38,423 nucleotides of DNA from a virus (IMGVR_UViG_2778261634_000009:1-38423), one strand, 5' to 3'. Counted from the stretch's first letter, positions 770-35,726 are shown. The notes: generated from the sequence alone by a model not told the origin. Numbers and translations: made by a program.

Positions 770-993
770 TCATCATCCTCATCCCAATCATCATCGTTGT
801 CGTCAACCGCCCATAACAGTGGGTTGGTACCTTTGCTTATCTGGCTTGCATATCCGCTACGTCCAAGGCTTCTCAACACGTTGTATATTTCAAACATCTC
901 AGTGCGTTCATCGCCAATGTCTAGCTGGCAGGCCAGTGCGTGACACTCTGAAGCGAGCGAGGCTAACTTTTGGAGGAATTCTTGTTTACTCAC
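766..993 (-). CDS. hypothetical protein with strongly acidic C-terminal tail
   Basis: 75-aa ORF ending WAVDDNDDDWDEDDE; overlapping start/stop junctions with both neighbours. Confidence 0.5.
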   Translation of the reverse strand: MSKQEFLQKLASLASECHALACQLDIGDERTEMFEIYNVLRSLGRSGYASQISKGTNPLLWAVDDNDDDWDEDDE

Positions 994-1796
994 GGATTCA
1001 CCTCCTGCGGTGGTTCTGGTAGCGGCATCCAGTGAGTTACGTCATCCAAGATATTTCCTGATAAATACGTGAAAGCTCTATATTTTTTGTAATCAACTGG
1101 ATTTACAACCCAGTTCCAATATGCGGCCACGATTTCACCTTGACTAAATGCCAGTAACATTTTGGTGTCTTCCGGCATTCGCTCACTACAGCTTATCCAA
1201 CCATCCGGAGTCACCGGAAGCGAGAACGGCAGCACATCTCTGTGAACAAGTTTTTGCTGTGACAGGTTATCCAGAACTTTCTGTACTGCTGCATCACCGA
1301 ATACACCAAGCGCATCTGCCATAACTCCTACAACCTGATAAGCCTCAGCGCATACCGTGGATAAACCATCCGGAATTACCGGAGAGTTGCCGGGTTCTTT
1401 AATGTGCAAGCGAGGCTCACCATCTTTTGGTTCAGGCCACTGGCGCTCCATGTTGATCTTCAATTTATCTTCCATAGCAGCGGTAATTTCAGCATCGCTG
1501 ATGCCAGCACGGCGCTGTGCATCCCACAACAGAAACTGCATATCAGCCCACTCGCTAAGATCGTCTGGTTCGGCTGCGGCTTCCAGTGCCTCTTTTGAGA
1601 GGTGTTTCAGTGGACCAATGGGGCCAACGCAGCCAAATGTGGAGTCAGACCATTTGGCATGCTCGTGGCGAATCTGTTCGCGTTCCAGTGATGCCAGTGC
1701 AATTCGTGCCAGTTCCATTTGTTCGCCACGGGTAAGCCCGTTTTCAAGCGGGGATTTAATGAACAATTCGATACGTTCTTTAGTGATAGTGCTCAT
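990..1796 (-). CDS. DUF551-domain phage protein
   Basis: 268-aa ORF; C-terminal motif WISCSERMPE...THWMPLPEPP is typical of DUF551 proteins of lambdoid early regions. Confidence 0.65.
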   Translation of the reverse strand: MSTITKERIELFIKSPLENGLTRGEQMELARIALASLEREQIRHEHAKWSDSTFGCVGPIGPLKHLSKEALEAAAEPDDLSEWADMQFLLWDAQRRAGISDAEITAAMEDKLKINMERQWPEPKDGEPRLHIKEPGNSPVIPDGLSTVCAEAYQVVGVMADALGVFGDAAVQKVLDNLSQQKLVHRDVLPFSLPVTPDGWISCSERMPEDTKMLLAFSQGEIVAAYWNWVVNPVDYKKYRAFTYLSGNILDDVTHWMPLPEPPQEVNP

Positions 1797-3698: not shown

Positions 3699-4375
3699 GC
3701 GGCGTTTTCCTTAATTTGATGAACATTATTGATGCCGTAGTAATCACAAACAGTGGCATCGACGAAAGAGAGATCGTTATCAATCTCATTGGAATCAAAC
3801 ATTCCCATTGGGGATTTAACAGTGTCTGCACCGTTGTTTTTCGTGGTGAAAAAGAACTGGTCATCGCGGGTAAGAGTGCGAAGAACTATAGTAAACATGC
3901 CTTCGACAGTGATTTTCTCGTCCAGCATTTTGCCGATAGTTTTCATTTTCACGCGCCCCATAGGGGTTTCTTCGGTATGTGCAAGAAAATAGACTCTCAG
4001 GTCATCAGGTGCATCCTGTGCAGCCTTAATCACCTCCCATGCGTGGCGGCCTATCTCAGTAAATTTATCAAACGATTTTTCTTCTGAGCGGCGCATAAAC
4101 TCATTGCTCATCACATACTGGAAGTCATCAACAATAACGATTCTTTTTCCGTATTCGTGAGCACGCTTAATTACAGCAACTATTACGTCCCATTTGTCAG
4201 TGGTAACTACGGTTCCTTTTTTTGCTCTGGCATCCCATGCAAGCCAGTCTTTTGATTTAAATGGTAGCGGCTTGCCTATTGGTTTTATAAGTATTGCTTC
4301 CTCTGGATTGATATTTCTCATGCTGGTTGATTTTCCGGTGCCAGATTCACCGAGTATTAATATCGCAGTTCCCAT
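3695..4375 (-). CDS. Sak4-like RecA-fold ATPase (phage single-strand annealing / recombination protein)
   Basis: 226-aa ORF with Walker A GESGTGKS near the N-terminus and hhhhDD Walker B (IVIVDD); sits where erf or bet lie in related phages. Confidence 0.8.
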   Translation of the reverse strand: MGTAILILGESGTGKSTSMRNINPEEAILIKPIGKPLPFKSKDWLAWDARAKKGTVVTTDKWDVIVAVIKRAHEYGKRIVIVDDFQYVMSNEFMRRSEEKSFDKFTEIGRHAWEVIKAAQDAPDDLRVYFLAHTEETPMGRVKMKTIGKMLDEKITVEGMFTIVLRTLTRDDQFFFTTKNNGADTVKSPMGMFDSNEIDNDLSFVDATVCDYYGINNVHQIKENAA

Positions 4376-8190: not shown

Positions 8191-8835
8191 ATGACATACG
8201 AAAATGACAAATTCCAGGTTCTGAAGAGCATGAAGGTGCCAGATGATTTTAAATCAAATGGCTTTGTTTATGTGCTTTCGAATGAGTGCATGCCAGGAAT
8301 TTATAAGATTGGGATGACTAAGCATTCACCAGAAGTTAGGGCTAAAGAAATTTCAGCCTCTACTGGCGTTCCTAAGCCATTTAAGGTGATAGCAGCCTTT
8401 CATTCAAATAATCCAGCATCAGATGAAAAACTCATTCATAAAGCCTTTGCAAAAGAGAGGCTTAGTGATAATCGAGAGTTTTTCAAGCTTGAAGATAATG
8501 AGCTTTCTGAATCTCTAAATGAAATAAGGGCGCTGGTTGGCCCTGAAAGAAATGGCGAGACGGCAGAATACGCAATTTACGACGCATTCATTTCTTTTCG
8601 CCATGAAAATGAGCTTGATCTTAATGAGGAGCTTATAGAGCAAGGTCTGGGTAGTGTAGTTGGTCATCTTCCTGCGGTGAAAAATTTCCTTATTCGCGCC
8701 GGAATTGATTACGCGAAGCAACTGATAAGCAAATATAACTCATCGATAGTTATTAATACAGATGGCAGTGTGGTGATGGTTAAGTCTCTTGAAGCCCAAT
8801 GCTTTGATGCGGAGGTTGGAAATGAGCCTGGCTGA
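8191..8835 (+). CDS. T5orf172 / MUG113 (GIY-YIG-like) domain protein
   Basis: 214-aa ORF; GFVYVLSNECMPGIYKIGMTKHSPEVRAKEISASTGVPKPFKV...NREFFKL fits the T5orf172 domain pattern; visibly AT-rich compared with flanking cII and O; 3' end overlaps the O start. Confidence 0.7.
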   Translation: MTYENDKFQVLKSMKVPDDFKSNGFVYVLSNECMPGIYKIGMTKHSPEVRAKEISASTGVPKPFKVIAAFHSNNPASDEKLIHKAFAKERLSDNREFFKLEDNELSESLNEIRALVGPERNGETAEYAIYDAFISFRHENELDLNEELIEQGLGSVVGHLPAVKNFLIRAGIDYAKQLISKYNSSIVINTDGSVVMVKSLEAQCFDAEVGNEPG

Positions 8836-9664
8836 AGTATTTTACCTGCCGAAGAGTGAACCTGTTGAACAGGAGCGAAGAGTGGCTGATATCGATGATG
8901 GTTACACCAGATTCGCTAACGAGCTGCTGGAAGCTATCGCAAGTGCCGATTTAACCGCTCGCCAGTTGAAAGTTATGCTGGCCTACGTCCGGAAAACATA
9001 TGGCTTCAATAAGAAAACAGATCGAATAGCCGATGAGCAAATTGCTCAGTTAACAGGACTGTCAAGGCAGAATGTTAACAAGGCTAAAAAAGAACTGATT
9101 TCAATGAATTGCCTGTTTATGGATGGAAATCAAATCGGTGTAAACAGGGAGGTATCTGCGTGGCAATTCAGCAAGTGTCTCCAAGTTAGCAACTTTGTCT
9201 CGAAGTTAGAGACAAAAAGTGTCTCCAAATTAGAGACACTCAATGTCTCGAAGTTAGAGACACACAAAAGACATTCTTTAAAGACAAAAGAAAATATTAA
9301 TAAACCCCCTATATCCCCCAAAAAAGTTTCTCAGAAGTTCGACCCGCTAGAAACAGAGTTGCCTGATTGGTTATCAGCAGAAACATGGTTGTCGTGGGTT
9401 ACCTATCGCAAGGAGATAGGTAAGTCGATCAAGTCTAAGCAAAGTGTCACTCAGGCTATCAACGTTCTATGCAGAAGTCTGGAGAAGGGATATACACCTG
9501 AAGAAATTATAAACCAGAGCATCGCCAGTGGTTGGCAGGGTATTTTTGAGCCCAAGACTCCAAAGGGGAAATCTCAACCGAGGCCGCAGCATCGAGCTAT
9601 GCAGGAAAACTTTGCCACCAAAGATTACGGACAAACTGAAATGCCTTCATGGGCGCAGGAGTGA
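8822..9664 (+). CDS. replication initiator protein O-like
   Basis: Start at internal Met (GGAGG upstream) of track ORF 8789..9664; N-terminal region LTARQLKVMLAYVRKTYGFNKK... typical of phage O N-terminal domain; iterons embedded mid-gene. Confidence 0.8.
   Translation: MSLAEVFYLPKSEPVEQERRVADIDDGYTRFANELLEAIASADLTARQLKVMLAYVRKTYGFNKKTDRIADEQIAQLTGLSRQNVNKAKKELISMNCLFMDGNQIGVNREVSAWQFSKCLQVSNFVSKLETKSVSKLETLNVSKLETHKRHSLKTKENINKPPISPKKVSQKFDPLETELPDWLSAETWLSWVTYRKEIGKSIKSKQSVTQAINVLCRSLEKGYTPEEIINQSIASGWQGIFEPKTPKGKSQPRPQHRAMQENFATKDYGQTEMPSWAQE
9177..9263. repeat. origin iterons (four about 18-bp repeats GTCTC(C/G)AA(G/A)TTAGAGACA) followed by an AT-rich stretch
   Basis: Four direct repeats at about 9177, 9197, 9221 and 9246, each with internal inverted symmetry GTCTC...GAGAC, encoding the repeated peptide SKLET; AT-rich 9264..9305 follows; lambda-type ori inside the O gene. 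Confidence 0.65.
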
Positions 9665-12540: not shown

Positions 12541-12709
12541 CCCATCCCAATCCCTCCAATACCAGAAAGAAAGCGTCGAGCGGGCTTTAACGTGCGCTAA
12601 CTGCGGTCAGAAGCTGCATGTGCTGGAAGTTCACATGTGTGAGCACTGCTGCGCAGAACTGATGAGCGACCCGAATAGCTCAATGCACGAGGAAGAAGAC
12701 GATGAATGA
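12533..12709 (+). CDS. ninF: NinF-like small Cys-rich protein
   Basis: Hand-translated 58-aa [46 protein letters not shown]... matches lambda NinF as remembered. Confidence 0.6.
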   Translation: MLSPSQSLQYQKESVERALTCANCGQKLHVLEVHMCEHCCAELMSDPNSSMHEEEDDE

Positions 12710-13424
12710 GTTAATAAATGGCAATGCCATCAAAATGACAAGCATTGAAATCGCTGAGTTGGTTGGTAAGCGTCATGACAATGTGAAACGTACCATCGAA
12801 ACGCTGGCTAAAAATGGTGTTATCCGGCTTCCTCAAATTGAGGTTTCCGAAAGAATCAATAACTTAGGGTTCAATGTTCAGTACGAGCATTACGTTTTCG
12901 AAGGCGAACAAGGTAAGCGAGACAGTATTGTCGTTGTTGCCCAGTTGTCGCCGGAATTCACCGCTCGCCTTGTTGACCGCTGGCGAGAGCTTGAAGAAGC
13001 TGCGGTTAATATCCCCAAAACGCTACCAGAAGCGTTGCGCCTTGCTGCTGATCTTGCTGAGCAGAAAATGCAACTGGAAAACCAGCTCGCAATTGCCGCA
13101 CCTAAAGTTGAGTTTGCCGATCGCGTTGGCGAGGCCAGCGGAATTTTGATTGGAAACTTTGCAAAGGTTGTCGGTATTGGTCCAAACAAACTGTTTGCGT
13201 GGATGCGCGATCACAAAATCCTTATTGCTTCATGTTCCCGGCGCAATGTGCCAATGCAGGAATATATGGATCGCGGCTATTTCACAGTGAAAGAAACAGC
13301 GGTCAACACAAATCACGGAATACAGATATCGTTCACCACAAAAATCACCGGGCGTGGTCAACAGTGGCTGACCAGAAAGCTGCTCGATAACGGAATGCTG
13401 AAAGTAACAGGTGAGGCTGCTTAA
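12702..13424 (+). CDS. Roi-like antirepressor (Rha/ORF6 N-terminal DNA-binding domain plus KilA-C domain)
   Basis: 240-aa ORF in the nin region; N-terminal region similar to phage Rha-type regulators and C-terminal KilAC-like region as remembered. Confidence 0.7.
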   Translation: MNELINGNAIKMTSIEIAELVGKRHDNVKRTIETLAKNGVIRLPQIEVSERINNLGFNVQYEHYVFEGEQGKRDSIVVVAQLSPEFTARLVDRWRELEEAAVNIPKTLPEALRLAADLAEQKMQLENQLAIAAPKVEFADRVGEASGILIGNFAKVVGIGPNKLFAWMRDHKILIASCSRRNVPMQEYMDRGYFTVKETAVNTNHGIQISFTTKITGRGQQWLTRKLLDNGMLKVTGEAA

Positions 13425-32908: not shown

Positions 32909-33097
32909 TTATTTCCCTAGCACATGAAACAATGTTTGCTTTAATTCCACCCATACAATTATGACCACTATAGACAGACAAAAGAAACTGAATGCATTGG
33001 CATCACGATCGAAACCTTCTCCGGCACTAAATCCGTAAAAGGTCATAAAAAATATAAAAATTGCGCACTTTGCAACGTTTACAAATTTTTTCTTCAC
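32909..33097 (-). CDS. small two-segment membrane protein (moron), GTG start
   Basis: 62-aa ORF with two hydrophobic helices; GTG start preceded by TAAGGAGGT with 5-nt spacer; AT-rich; convergent with gene 16 and divergent from the lipoprotein gene. Confidence 0.5.
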   Translation of the reverse strand: MKKKFVNVAKCAIFIFFMTFYGFSAGEGFDRDANAFSFFCLSIVVIIVWVELKQTLFHVLGK

Positions 33098-33214
33098 ACC
33101 AACCTCCTTAGTTTTTAGCAGGATACCATGAAAAAAGTAAACATCTTTTGCCTACTTCACATTTGAATGGTTTGTCATTAGGATGTTTCCGGTTTTTTAA
33201 ATATGGAAATTGAT

Positions 33215-33634
33215 ATGAAGAGGATTATTGGCGTCGTTGCTGGCGCTATGATGTTATCTGGGTGCGCAACTATTGTTGGTGATGAAACGCAACTTGTGCA
33301 AGTGAACAGCAACCCTTCCGGTGCGAGCTTTAAGGTAAAAGATGAATCAGGCGTGATTGTTGCGCAAGGCAAGACTCCACAAGGAGTAACTCTTGCCAAG
33401 TCAGATGGTAGTTATTTTGGCAAAAAGAGCTACCAGATCACTATGGAAAAGGATGGGTACGAACCAGTTACCCTGCCAATCAAAGCCAATGCTAATGGTT
33501 GGTATATTGGTGGAAACCTTGTGTTTGGTGGGTTAATTGGTTGGCTTGCTGTTGATCCATTTAATGGTGGGATGTATACATTGAAGCCAAAAGAGGCAAA
33601 TGCATCTCTTATACCTTCCACGAAGCAAGATTAA
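33215..33634 (+). CDS. PEGA-like domain lipoprotein (moron)
   Basis: Signal peptide MKRIIGVVAGAMMLSGC with lipobox L-S-G-C; PEGA-like beta-domain pattern (NSNPSGASFKV...GKTPQGVTL...YQITMEKDGYEPVT); glycine-rich C-terminal segment; own terminator. Confidence 0.7.
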   Translation: MKRIIGVVAGAMMLSGCATIVGDETQLVQVNSNPSGASFKVKDESGVIVAQGKTPQGVTLAKSDGSYFGKKSYQITMEKDGYEPVTLPIKANANGWYIGGNLVFGGLIGWLAVDPFNGGMYTLKPKEANASLIPSTKQD

Positions 33635-33641
33635 GAAATGA

Positions 33642-33667
33642 AACCCACCGTCAGGTGGGTTTTTTAT
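33642..33667. terminator. intrinsic terminator between convergent lipoprotein and ClpP-like genes (likely bidirectional)
   Basis: 8-bp GC-rich stem AACCCACC / GGTGGGTT with 4-nt loop followed by TTTTTAT on the plus strand; T-rich flank also on the minus strand. Confidence 0.7.
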
Positions 33668-33690: not shown

Positions 33691-34227
33691 TCAAACAACC
33701 CACCAGTTTGCCTGATTGGATACCAGCCTTGCAGTTTTTATGGAATTAATTATGCCATGCTCAAGAGCCTTGTTAGCATCCAAAATGGTCGAGTCTGCTA
33801 TCAGGGATGCCCACCTAATATGGGTTCCGATGTCGATATTGAACGTCTCAACGAAGCGATCAAGATCGTTATCGAGGCATTTCCCGTACTCTCTCAATCT
33901 GGCATGGTCGGCGGCTGGGGTGGCAAAGCCCCATAATAGAGGATGTAACAGGAATCTTGATAATGGGTTTGCGAAACGCTCTGAGCCAGCCAGGAAAACG
34001 ATATTAGCTATGGATTCAACATTGCTTATGTTGTGAGTTCTAACGGTAACAGGGAGTGACTTAAGAAAGTTATACGCAGTAAAACCAGCGGCAGTTTCCC
34101 CTCCCTGACTTGATATATGGATATTTAATTCAGTTGCGCCTTGAGATAATGCGGTGAGACAGTGGTTCTGAAGTTGCCCAACAGTGGCGGTGTTAACGGG
34201 GCATAAGAAATGAATTGTGTGCAGCAT
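33691..34227 (-). CDS. ClpP-family (S14) serine protease-like protein, stand-alone
   Basis: 178-aa ORF; IHISSQGGETAAGFTAY and SIANIVFLAGSERFANPLSRFLLHPLLWG align by eye with E. coli ClpP YINSPGGVITAGMSIY and [31 protein letters not shown], conserving the catalytic Ser and His positions; start codon overlaps the mnt stop (TAATG). Confidence 0.75.
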   Translation of the reverse strand: MLHTIHFLCPVNTATVGQLQNHCLTALSQGATELNIHISSQGGETAAGFTAYNFLKSLPVTVRTHNISNVESIANIVFLAGSERFANPLSRFLLHPLLWGFATPAADHARLREYGKCLDNDLDRFVETFNIDIGTHIRWASLIADSTILDANKALEHGIINSIKTARLVSNQANWWVV

Positions 34228-34481
34228 TATTTATCATCCTTGCCATAAATCTTTTTAAGTGTCTCAAATACAACAGTCTTGAACTGCTCTGCCTGCTGAT
34301 CAGCCAAGCGTTCAGCTTCGTCGCGATAGCCAGTCACAGGCGATGGTTTTGATAGAGCATCTTGGACGATTTGTAACAACTCGGAGTTCATTGATCTCCC
34401 ATTCGCCTCCGCCCTGAATTTTAATTTCTCCCTTACTTCCATAGGCATACGGAAGTTAAAGTGCGGATCATCTCTAGCCAT
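34227..34481 (-). CDS. mnt: Mnt repressor (ribbon-helix-helix), maintenance of lysogeny in immI
   Basis: 84-aa ORF MARDDPHFNFRMPMEVREKLKFRAEANGRSMNSELLQIVQDAL... matches P22 Mnt as remembered. Confidence 0.9.
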   Translation of the reverse strand: MARDDPHFNFRMPMEVREKLKFRAEANGRSMNSELLQIVQDALSKPSPVTGYRDEAERLADQQAEQFKTVVFETLKKIYGKDDK

Positions 34482-34503: not shown

Positions 34504-34555
34504 TTGACATGATAGAAGCACTCTACTATATTCTCAATAGGTCCACGGTGGGCCT
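34504..34555. promoter_or_regulatory. immI control region: Pant promoter with Arc operator and Mnt operator (divergent Pmnt)
   Basis: -35 TTGACA (34504..34509) and -10 TATATT (34527..34532); Arc-operator-like TGATAGAAGCACTCTACTATA between them; 17-bp near-palindrome AGGTCCACGGTGGGCCT (34539..34555) resembling the P22 Mnt operator. Confidence 0.6.
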
Positions 34556-34571: not shown

Positions 34572-34733
34572 ATGAAAGGAATGAGCAAAATGCCGCAGTT
34601 CAATTTGCGGTGGCCTAAAGAAGTATTGGATTTGGTCCGCAAGGTGGCGGAAGAGAATGGTCGGTCTGTTAACTCTGAGATTTATCAGAGAGTAATGGAA
34701 AGCTTTAAGAAGGAAGGGCGCATTGGCGCGTAA
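34572..34733 (+). CDS. arc: Arc repressor (ribbon-helix-helix)
   Basis: MKGMSKMPQFNLRWPKEVLDLVRKVAEENGRSVNSEIYQRVMESFKKEGRIGA, essentially P22 Arc (53 aa) as remembered; track ORF 34509..34733 is an upstream extension into the promoter. Confidence 0.9.
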   Translation: MKGMSKMPQFNLRWPKEVLDLVRKVAEENGRSVNSEIYQRVMESFKKEGRIGA

Positions 34734-34802: not shown

Positions 34803-35726
34803 ATGAAAAGTATAGCAACAGCAGTATCTACTATCAATGTACCATTCCACGGCGCAGAGCTTTATGTTGTCAATCACAACGGCGAACCGTATACCCCAAT
34901 GAAACCTATCGTTGAGGGAATGGGTATGGATTGGGCTTCACAGTTTACAAAGTTAAAACAAAGATTTGCTAAAGGTATTGTGGAAATCGCAATACCTTCA
35001 GTTGGCGGTGTGCAGACCATGATTTGCCTTGCTTTACGTAAACTGAATGGCTGGTTGCAAACCATCAGCCCTAACAAAGTCCGCCCTGAAATCCGCGACA
35101 ATGTAATCCAGTATCAAGAAGAGTGTGACGATGTGCTATACGAGTACTGGACTAAAGGCCATGTAGTTAACCCACGCAAAGCTAAAAAGGCGTTGCCTGG
35201 TAAAATCACTACTGAACAGCAGGAAGCCATTAAACAACTCGTCATGAGTCGCGGTCAGTCTCTGCCAAAAGAAAAACAGGCTAAGGCGATGATCACCATG
35301 TGGTCGTCACTGAAATCCCATTTTGGATGTTCGTACAAAGAAATCAGTGAGGAGCAGTTTACCGAAGCACTGTCACTTGCAGCTCGAGTTCCGCTTGAAG
35401 GTGAGTTCATCGGCAAACAAGAGAAGAAAACCAACGAGCTTTCTGCAAAAGAAGCAAACAGCCTTGTATGGTTATGGGATTATGCCAACCGCTCACAGGC
35501 ATTATTCCGCGAACTGTATCCGGCGCTAAAACAAATTCAATCGAACTATTCCGGCAGATGTCATGACTGCGGTTATGAGTTCTCCCGTATTATCGATATA
35601 GCGAGAGATGTTTTAATCAATCACACACGAGATGTTGATATCAATGAGCCAGACGGACCAACGAATCTTTCCGCATGGATGAGACTTAAGAATAAAGAAT
35701 TACCTCCTTCAGTTCATAACTACTGA
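34803..35726 (+). CDS. ant: antirepressor Ant
   Basis: 307-aa ORF immediately downstream of arc, size and position as P22 Ant. Confidence 0.85.
   Translation: MKSIATAVSTINVPFHGAELYVVNHNGEPYTPMKPIVEGMGMDWASQFTKLKQRFAKGIVEIAIPSVGGVQTMICLALRKLNGWLQTISPNKVRPEIRDNVIQYQEECDDVLYEYWTKGHVVNPRKAKKALPGKITTEQQEAIKQLVMSRGQSLPKEKQAKAMITMWSSLKSHFGCSYKEISEEQFTEALSLAARVPLEGEFIGKQEKKTNELSAKEANSLVWLWDYANRSQALFRELYPALKQIQSNYSGRCHDCGYEFSRIIDIARDVLINHTRDVDINEPDGPTNLSAWMRLKNKELPPSVHNY

Follow-up and report, generated by a model that had tools for sequence, protein, structure and literature searches.

A prophage accessory gene behind mnt encodes a predicted atypical ClpP paralogue that may act on host Clp proteolysis

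In this study we describe a gene for a ClpP-like protein that is located directly behind the repressor gene mnt in a virus sequence of 38,423 nucleotides (IMGVR_UViG_2778261634_000009:1-38423; the whole stretch that was analyzed is called the window in the following). The closest characterised relative of the protein is PpClpP1, the "ClpP1" of Pseudomonas plecoglossicida, which is deposited in the PDB as entry 9UXT (PMC12900304, 2026). PpClpP1 is N-terminally truncated and contains a Ser-His-Pro "triad", whereby the Ser and the His are essential and the third residue is dispensable (PMC12900304). It forms a homo-tetradecamer with a dilated pore of 42.7 Å, its peptidase activity is about 13-fold weaker than that of the canonical paralogue, and it does not bind ClpX. 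Together with the canonical ClpP of the same strain (PpClpP2), PpClpP1 assembles into a stable hetero-tetradecamer, which binds ClpX and is faster on model substrates (PMC12900304). Phages are nowhere mentioned in that paper. An independent precedent is PaClpP2, an alternative ClpP subunit that modulates the assembly of ClpXP (PMC13056064). In P. aeruginosa ClpP2, Listeria ClpP1, and mycobacterial ClpP1P2, the second subunit is weak or inactive alone and acts when stacked on a canonical ring (PMC13056064; PDB match 4RYF). The fold, the paralogue type, and the structure and biochemistry of the relative are already known (2026). In the literature we found neither a description of the prophage-borne clade that is presented here nor a report on a phenotype or on the coupling to mnt.

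The gene for the ClpP-like protein and the codons of its predicted catalytic residues were located as follows:

33691 to 34227, minus strand: clpP-like gene, 178 amino acids, ATG start (six-frame list of open reading frames (ORFs), Pfam, and structure model)
34014 to 34012, minus strand: codon of catalytic Ser72
33945 to 33943, minus strand: codon of catalytic His95

The 178-amino-acid protein matches the Pfam family PF00574 (CLP_protease) with E = 4.3e-12 and 46.7 bits, above the cut-off of 20.2, whereby the match begins at profile position 37. The AlphaFold2 model, for which an alignment of homologues was used as input, reached a predicted local distance difference test (pLDDT) value of 91.3 and a predicted template modeling (pTM) score of 0.87. 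With this model, Foldseek retrieved ClpP structures at template modeling (TM) scores of 0.79–0.91, with canonical ClpPs at about 0.8 and PpClpP1 (9uxt_A) at the top rank (TM 0.91, root-mean-square deviation 1.9 Å). The same protein stood out in a sequence search of the PDB, which matched 9UXT chain A (183 amino acids) over residues 3–175 with E = 4.6e-35, followed by canonical ClpPs at 1e-8 or weaker. In the BFVD collection of viral structures a close relative was not found, and the top identity was 24%.

A sequence-only reading of the window had aligned the protein with ClpP by eye at the segments around the catalytic Ser and His and had suggested an S14 peptidase with a Ser-His-Asp triad. 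The alignment was reproduced with mafft, where Ser72 falls into the column of the catalytic Ser97 of E. coli ClpP and His95 into that of His122; both residues are unchanged throughout the 22 homologues of the family alignment, with identities down to 32%. The peptidase assignment stood with regard to the Pfam match, the ClpP fold in profile search and structure prediction, and the Ser and His residues, but not with regard to the Asp: the column of E. coli ClpP Asp171 holds Ser146 in the ClpP-like protein and Ser or Ala in most of the family. The N-terminus of the protein corresponds to about residue 25 of mature E. coli ClpP, so that the alignment shows no counterpart of the axial N-terminal loop and of helix A. 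In an alignment at about 20% identity, the residues Y60/Y62/F82/I90/M92/F112/L114/L189 of E. coli ClpP, which we take to be the hydrophobic docking pocket for the IGF/IGL loops of ClpX/ClpA, are replaced by the mostly polar N/H/S/H/I/F/N/K. The NCBIfam equivalog and subfamily models of canonical ClpP yielded only 22–41 bits and thus fell far short of their cut-offs of 228–361. From alignment and model we regard it as very probable that the gene product has a ClpP fold with a Ser72-His95 active site and is devoid of the Asp and the axial gate; the ClpX/ClpA docking pockets may likewise be missing. The protein is not a canonical ClpP but belongs, with its truncated N-terminus, to the atypical ClpP paralogues of the PpClpP1 type. 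Between the window copy and a copy from Pectobacterium, the ratio of nonsynonymous to synonymous substitution rates (dN/dS) is 0.08 at a dS of about 1.6. Because of this ratio and the invariance of Ser72 and His95 in the 22 homologues, the ORF is real and under purifying selection and does not represent a chance ORF.

The comparison with described proteins places the ClpP-like protein next to PpClpP1. Both belong to the same length class (183 vs 178 amino acids), can be aligned from end to end with about 38–40% identity, lack the N-terminal loop and helix A, and have the catalytic Ser and His together with a non-acidic third position (Pro in PpClpP1 and Ser146 in the ClpP-like protein). They differ in their genetic setting, since the PpClpP1 gene is chromosomal, flanked by KGG stress genes and a DUF6555 gene, and has no ribbon-helix-helix (RHH) partner, whereas the clpP-like gene is prophage-borne behind mnt; moreover, the biochemistry is known for the Pseudomonas protein only. 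Canonical ClpP (E. coli, MEROPS S14) has the same fold, aligned Ser and His residues, and the handle region in common with the ClpP-like protein. However, it is only about 20% identical and has Asp171 and axial N-terminal loops, whereas the clpP-like gene has no adjacent clpX and its product would carry mostly polar residues at pocket positions. The ClpP-like protein is also not an orthologue of P. aeruginosa ClpP2, Listeria ClpP1, or mycobacterial ClpP1P2; of such atypical paralogues, the mycobacterial and Listeria ClpP1 listed among the phmmer matches in the PDB have E values of 1e-8 to 1e-5. In contrast to these systems, the subunit would here be supplied by a virus. A profile search against 1.84 billion representatives yielded 249 clusters at E ≤ 1e-30, and the short ClpP-like proteins therefore constitute a sizeable branch.

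Orthologues of PpClpP1 with 183 amino acids occur in Pseudomonas, Azotobacter, and Stutzerimonas. The PpClpP1 gene was also considered as possibly prophage-borne, which was ruled out, since it lies on the chromosome beside KGG genes and a DUF6555 gene in the two orthologue contexts inspected. In Pseudomonas (loci L021–L025), the orthologues share synteny with genes for small KGG-repeat general-stress proteins and with the DUF6555 gene. From this gene order, the chromosomal clade may have a role linked to stress, a point that does not appear in the discussion of PMC12900304.

In databases, the gene is labeled either as "ATP-dependent Clp protease proteolytic subunit" or, for the copy of phage phiv205-1 in GenBank, as head maturation protease. 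Both labels are misleading, and the latter one is wrong. Phage head-maturation proteases (NF045542, phrog_94) are likewise ClpP-fold serine proteases of tailed phages, and a displaced or decaying enzyme of this kind would agree with the phiv205-1 annotation, with the best PHROG of the ClpP-like protein (phrog_94, 5e-21), and with the match to the NCBIfam model Clp_rel_HeadMat (3.7e-13). However, the NCBIfam score (NF045542) amounts to 49.7 bits and is far under the cut-off of 120. The genes of head-maturation proteases lie in the head-gene block, and the proteins, which in many cases carry a fused scaffold or capsid domain, are active in procapsids, whereas the clpP-like gene stands alone in the immI region. 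The window represents a P22-like (Lederbergvirus-type) E. coli phage with P22 portal, scaffold, coat, gp10, needle, gp7/gp20/gp16, and a head-binding tailspike, as well as a lambda-O-type replication protein (8789–9664). As had been suggested before, the clpP-like gene is a stand-alone gene outside the head block: the P22-type portal, scaffold, and coat module lies elsewhere and on the opposite strand. A P22-type head needs no protease. Furthermore, the dN/dS ratio and the invariant Ser and His speak against decay, and the nearest structure is that of a cellular ClpP paralogue. The interpretation as head-maturation protease is thus effectively refuted. Within the window, neither a Clp-type ATPase, whose absence the sequence-only reading had pointed out, nor a protease besides the ClpP-like ORF was found.

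The immI cassette with the clpP-like gene comprises the following further elements:

34227 to 34481, minus strand: mnt, Arc/Mnt RHH repressor of 84 amino acids, first cistron of the proposed operon (Pfam Arc 4.9e-30, Repressor_Mnt 3.5e-12)
34225 to 34241, minus strand: coupling junction AAGGATGATAAATAATG (from sequence)
34509 to 34537, minus strand: Pmnt-like promoter TTGAGA-17-TATCAT (consensus scan, 10/12 matches)
34504 to 34532, plus strand: Pant-like promoter TTGACA-17-TATATT, divergent from Pmnt, driving arc and ant (scan 11/12 and P22 annotation)
33641 to 33662, no strand assigned: strong stem-loop terminator AAACCCACC-TGAC-GGTGGGTTT, 29 nucleotides past the stop of the clpP-like gene (terminator scan)
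34572 to 34733, plus strand: arc (Pfam Arc 1e-30; immI cassette context)
34803 to 35726, plus strand: ant, antirepressor (Pfam P22_AR_N 2.8e-44, P22_AR_C 9.3e-29; immI cassette context)

Across the boundary of mnt and the clpP-like gene, the minus strand reads ...GGCAAGGATGATAAATAATGCTG. The mnt stop codon TAA (34229–34227) and the ATG of the clpP-like gene (34227–34225) overlap by one nucleotide in TAATG at 34229–34225, in agreement with what had been noted from the sequence, and a Shine-Dalgarno (SD) sequence AAGGA is located at 34241–34237, 9 nucleotides upstream of the ATG. The same SD and TAATG arrangement is present in Pectobacterium, in lambda-like phages, and in those E. coli prophages whose Mnt allele is a different one; at least six alleles of the Mnt type precede it, and it is kept over a dS of about 1.6. 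The consensus scan placed Pant, Pmnt, and Psar where they were expected and revealed no credible promoter between mnt and the clpP-like gene. The region with Pant, Pmnt, O-arc, and O-mnt is 98% identical to that of P22 and epsilon34 in the alignment, and residues 1–53 of the window Mnt are identical to P22 Mnt. The terminator at 33641–33662, which also ends a convergent lipoprotein ORF, has its equivalent directly after mnt in epsilon34 and after orf59a in P22; we propose it as the end of the mnt-clpP-like transcript. The conserved junction, the near identity of the Pmnt region with P22, and the terminator directly 3' of the gene make co-transcription of mnt and the clpP-like gene from Pmnt the natural reading. 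From P22 genetics, Pmnt is active in the lysogen. We infer from the P22-identical control region and these established genetics that the clpP-like gene is co-expressed with Mnt in lysogens.

The sequence-only reading had placed the gene in the slot of the superinfection-exclusion gene sieA of P22. This had to be revised, since in P22 orf59a is located between mnt and the annotated "mnt terminator", whereas sieA lies past the terminator and has its own promoter. The clpP-like gene follows mnt as second cistron of its operon and thus holds the position of orf59a, not the sieA slot. Thus, orf59a is a positional analogue in that it follows mnt and precedes the mnt terminator. A second positional analogue is sieA as a lysogen-expressed exclusion gene of the same inter-module region, which differs by its own promoter and its position past the terminator. 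A sequence relationship of the clpP-like gene to either of the two was not seen, although no test was aimed at it. In the window, the sieA-equivalent space is occupied by the lipoprotein ORF (33203–33634) and an ORF of 62 amino acids (32909–33097). Phage epsilon34 matches the window on both flanks, lacks the clpP-like gene, and has its terminator directly 3' of mnt.

Mnt proteins that are followed by the clpP-like gene end in ...ETLK..Y(G/A)K(D/G)(D/E/N)K, and those of P22, epsilon34, Gally, IME10, and Sf101, where the gene is absent, in ...DTLK.LYKK... A role of the former tail, which is seen only where the gene follows, as degron or tether for the protease was considered and rejected in favor of the simpler explanation by the SD codons AAG GAT and a recombination boundary about 40 nucleotides inside mnt. 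The distinctive tail is accordingly read as a probable result of a translation-initiation constraint and a mosaic boundary and not as a degron. The DNA homology between E. coli genomes and the window typically breaks off about 40 nucleotides into mnt, with a different Arc-family gene upstream. A separate observation concerns the mnt operator at about 34552, which deviates by one base from that of P22 and epsilon34 (GGTGGGCC vs GGTGGACC), whereby the perfect symmetry of the half-sites is lost.

Six deposited phages carry the gene, all with at least 99% amino acid identity. These include the Lederbergviruses phiv205-1, E212, and EC.P3 as well as the lambda-like phages PhiR12_1/4/5. The allele (at least 95% nucleotide identity) is present in 128 of 5426 complete E. 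coli genomes (about 2.4%), whereby all copies are chromosomal and a single genome has the allele at as many as three places. The gene is annotated as intact in 126 E. coli genomes. It is missing at the same place in epsilon34, P22, Gally, IME10, and Sf101, and the E. coli LF82 prophage Gally, which had been considered as a carrier, was thereby ruled out. A survey of IMG/VR viral contigs yielded 80 loci, which were split by identity to the window protein. At 96–100% identity, a Mnt-type RHH gene is located upstream in 32 of 32 loci, with the TAATG overlap in all but one. These loci have at least six RHH N-terminal alleles and lie either in a P22-like immI region or in a lambda-like L/K tail insertion. 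A Pectobacterium-type copy (79% identity) is likewise coupled to an RHH gene. At 51–74% identity, 44 of 45 loci have no abutting gene on the same strand, and at least 24 are convergent with an Rz/LysC lysis cassette ahead of terminase, which is the position of bor in lambda. Prophages of Klebsiella and Leclercia and metagenomic prophages have the gene at this lysis/terminase position, and those of Proteus beside N in the early-left region; in Chromobacterium it lies between genes for the tail fibre and for lysis. The gene is oriented against its neighbors in each of these contexts and is preceded by a spacer of about 80–260 bp.

Some single loci of this survey are worth mentioning. The exception without TAATG overlap is locus L053, where at about 3735–3745 the A-run at the mnt/clpP-like junction is one nucleotide shorter (GATGAAAATAATG) and the overlap with the mnt stop is gone, owing to either a sequencing error or a natural frameshift. 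In the PhiR12 phages (4048–6060 in L003 from PhiR12_1) and in the IMG/VR loci L042–L046, L052, L056, and L059–L061, a cassette consisting of the clpP-like gene and mnt in one direction and, divergently, arc and ant is located between the tail genes L and K. In these lambda-like siphophages, a secondary immunity module of the P22 type has thus moved into an unrelated virion-gene block. A Klebsiella protein of 238 amino acids (L006–L008, 6001–6717; P0026), which represents a cluster with 206 member sequences, has an N-terminal extension of 52 amino acids that is unmatched in the family. Its true start is probably the internal MIHTVHF, and the extension looks like a start-codon misannotation.

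In every context examined, the enterobacterial clade is restricted to prophages. By position and variable presence the clpP-like gene is a prophage moron, which occurs at three unrelated prophage positions, with promoter and terminator signals in the window, and is hard-wired behind mnt in the window lineage. The arrangement of an RHH gene followed by an overlapping gene is also similar to that of a type II toxin-antitoxin-like pair, in which the RHH protein would be the antitoxin and the protease the toxin. However, the more distant homologues have no abutting upstream gene in 44 of 45 loci, a search for small ORFs upstream of ten distant copies found none, and the gene is annotated as intact in the E. 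coli genomes mentioned above. The role of Mnt is moreover established and separate. A toxin-antitoxin pair is therefore essentially excluded. It could also be that the protease is a regulator specific for immI, which clears leaky Ant or turns over Arc or Mnt and in this way adds a post-translational layer to antirepressor control. This would fit with the fact that the closest clade always travels with mnt-arc-ant, including the four-gene cassette between lambda-like L and K. The copies with 51–74% identity, however, are almost all lone and without an adjacent RHH gene, and the C-terminal tail of Mnt is explained by its SD codons rather than by a degron. We regard such a regulator as very unlikely.

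Our best guess, which we put forward tentatively and by analogy with PpClpP1, is that the gene provides lysogens with an alternative ClpP ring that remodels host Clp proteolysis. According to this explanation, an atypical ClpP paralogue that serves as an accessory (moron) gene of prophages would in this lineage have been captured into the mnt operon, where it is the second cistron. In the lysogen, Pmnt would probably transcribe mnt and the clpP-like gene up to the terminator at 33641–33662, and translation would start from the SD and TAATG junction. As in PpClpP1, the product might assemble into heptameric rings, which alone would form a weakly active tetradecamer with a wide pore that is unable to bind unfoldases. 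Stacked on a host ClpP ring, these rings might give a hybrid 14-mer, to which ClpX or ClpA would be bound via the host ring and whose activity would be altered; for both assembly steps we consider this a possible rather than a likely course. As a speculative consequence, ClpXP/ClpAP proteolysis of the host would be remodeled as long as the prophage is resident, and an equally speculative pay-off for phage or host could lie in the hindrance of superinfecting phages, in a tuned induction, or in fitness under stress. Somewhat doubtful is the more specific idea that the phage-supplied proteolytic ring yields hybrid ClpXP/ClpAP in lysogens, which shifts the fate of phage-relevant Clp substrates and would make the gene an exclusion or lysogeny-stability factor via host proteolysis. 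Substrates in such a case might be, for example, repressor fragments during induction or the O-type replication initiators of lambdoid phages that superinfect the lysogen. We know of no virus for which the donation of an alternative ClpP subunit has been shown, as opposed to that of an adaptor or inhibitor.

The following points weigh against the alternative-ring explanation. PpClpP1 is chromosomal and only about 38–40% identical, so its properties may not transfer to the prophage protein. The docking-pocket residues were assigned from an alignment at only about 20% identity. Finally, expression from Pmnt is deduced from P22, and Gally, the sole E. coli P22-like prophage that could be checked with transcriptome data, does not have the gene.

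The first suggestion of the sequence-only reading had been that the protein is a self-sufficient exclusion or defence effector, and the second one that it acts via the host Clp machinery. In the first case, a gate-less homo-tetradecamer would degrade unfolded incoming phage proteins, for example ejection proteins, without an ATPase and thus block superinfection. The positions of the gene in immI, beside the lysis cassette, and next to N are typical of lysogen-expressed conversion or exclusion genes, and it adjoins a hypervariable slot that harbors a Panacea-domain protein, YafO, or a lipoprotein, depending on the prophage. In addition, PpClpP1 has an unusually wide axial pore and a measurable peptidase activity alone. 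This activity is low, though, and the gene lies outside the sieA position proper. The PADLOC-DB v2 search gave zero matches at E ≤ 1 for the ClpP-like protein, Mnt, and the two neighboring ORFs, and the literature search found no plating phenotype for the gene. A self-sufficient effector thus appears unlikely, and as far as the analogy holds, the behavior of PpClpP1 favors an action via host Clp over a free-standing defence protease.

Another explanation is a host-fitness or stress moron without a phage-directed role, whereby the protein would be an extra housekeeping peptidase that aids growth, motility, or stress survival of the lysogen. Deletion of the Pseudomonas relative lowers growth and motility (PMC12900304), and the Pseudomonas orthologues adjoin KGG general-stress genes. 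For Gally, a related prophage of E. coli LF82, a 50-fold induction of the mnt operon in macrophages has been reported; however, Gally has no clpP-like gene, and the enterobacterial copies are found in prophages only. We rate this explanation as quite unlikely, whereby it overlaps with a remodeling of host Clp proteolysis and is not exclusive of it.

As was recently shown in Pseudomonas, ClpXP can be retuned by alternative ClpP subunits, and here this type of subunit is mobile. Prophages of E. coli, Klebsiella, Leclercia, Proteus, Pectobacterium, and other genera carry the gene, always at moron positions where expression in the lysogen would be expected. Should the subunit indeed hybridize with the ClpP of the host, a central protease of the cell would be open to rewiring by prophages, which would bear on phage-phage competition, induction, and stress phenotypes. 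The finding would also correct the database labels of the gene.

In P22-like E. coli prophages that otherwise resemble each other, a hypervariable interval lies between the ejection gene 16 and the clpP-like gene (L010, 4121–4570; L011, 3978–5002; L012, 4069–4995). It contains a Panacea-domain protein, a hypothetical protein together with a YafO-family toxin, or a lipoprotein in one prophage each and looks like a moron or defence hot spot. In the window, the lipoprotein ORF of this interval (33203–33634, plus strand) encodes 143 amino acids with a lipoprotein-type N-terminus (…AGAMMLSGCAT…). It is homologous to gp15 of epsilon34 and belongs to phrog_6823 according to a match at 8.8e-86. Matches to PEGA and to a Cor signal peptide are weak, a promoter-like site is located at 33156–33184, and the ORF is convergent with the clpP-like gene. 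From its place where P22 has sieA, it is a candidate lysogenic-conversion or exclusion lipoprotein. The hydrophobic ORF of 62 amino acids (32909–33097, minus strand) directly follows gene 16 and matches phrog_21338 (unknown function) at 4.3e-45, without a Pfam match. Further genes of the window include a second antirepressor-type gene with Rha and KilAC/ANT domains in the late-early region, besides the immI Ant (12702–13424, plus strand), and a gene for a T5orf172/MUG113-domain protein (GIY-YIG-related) directly 5' of the lambda-O-type gene (8191–8835, plus strand). In the early-left (ea) region, a dATP/dGTP pyrophosphohydrolase domain is fused to DUF551 (990–1796, minus strand).

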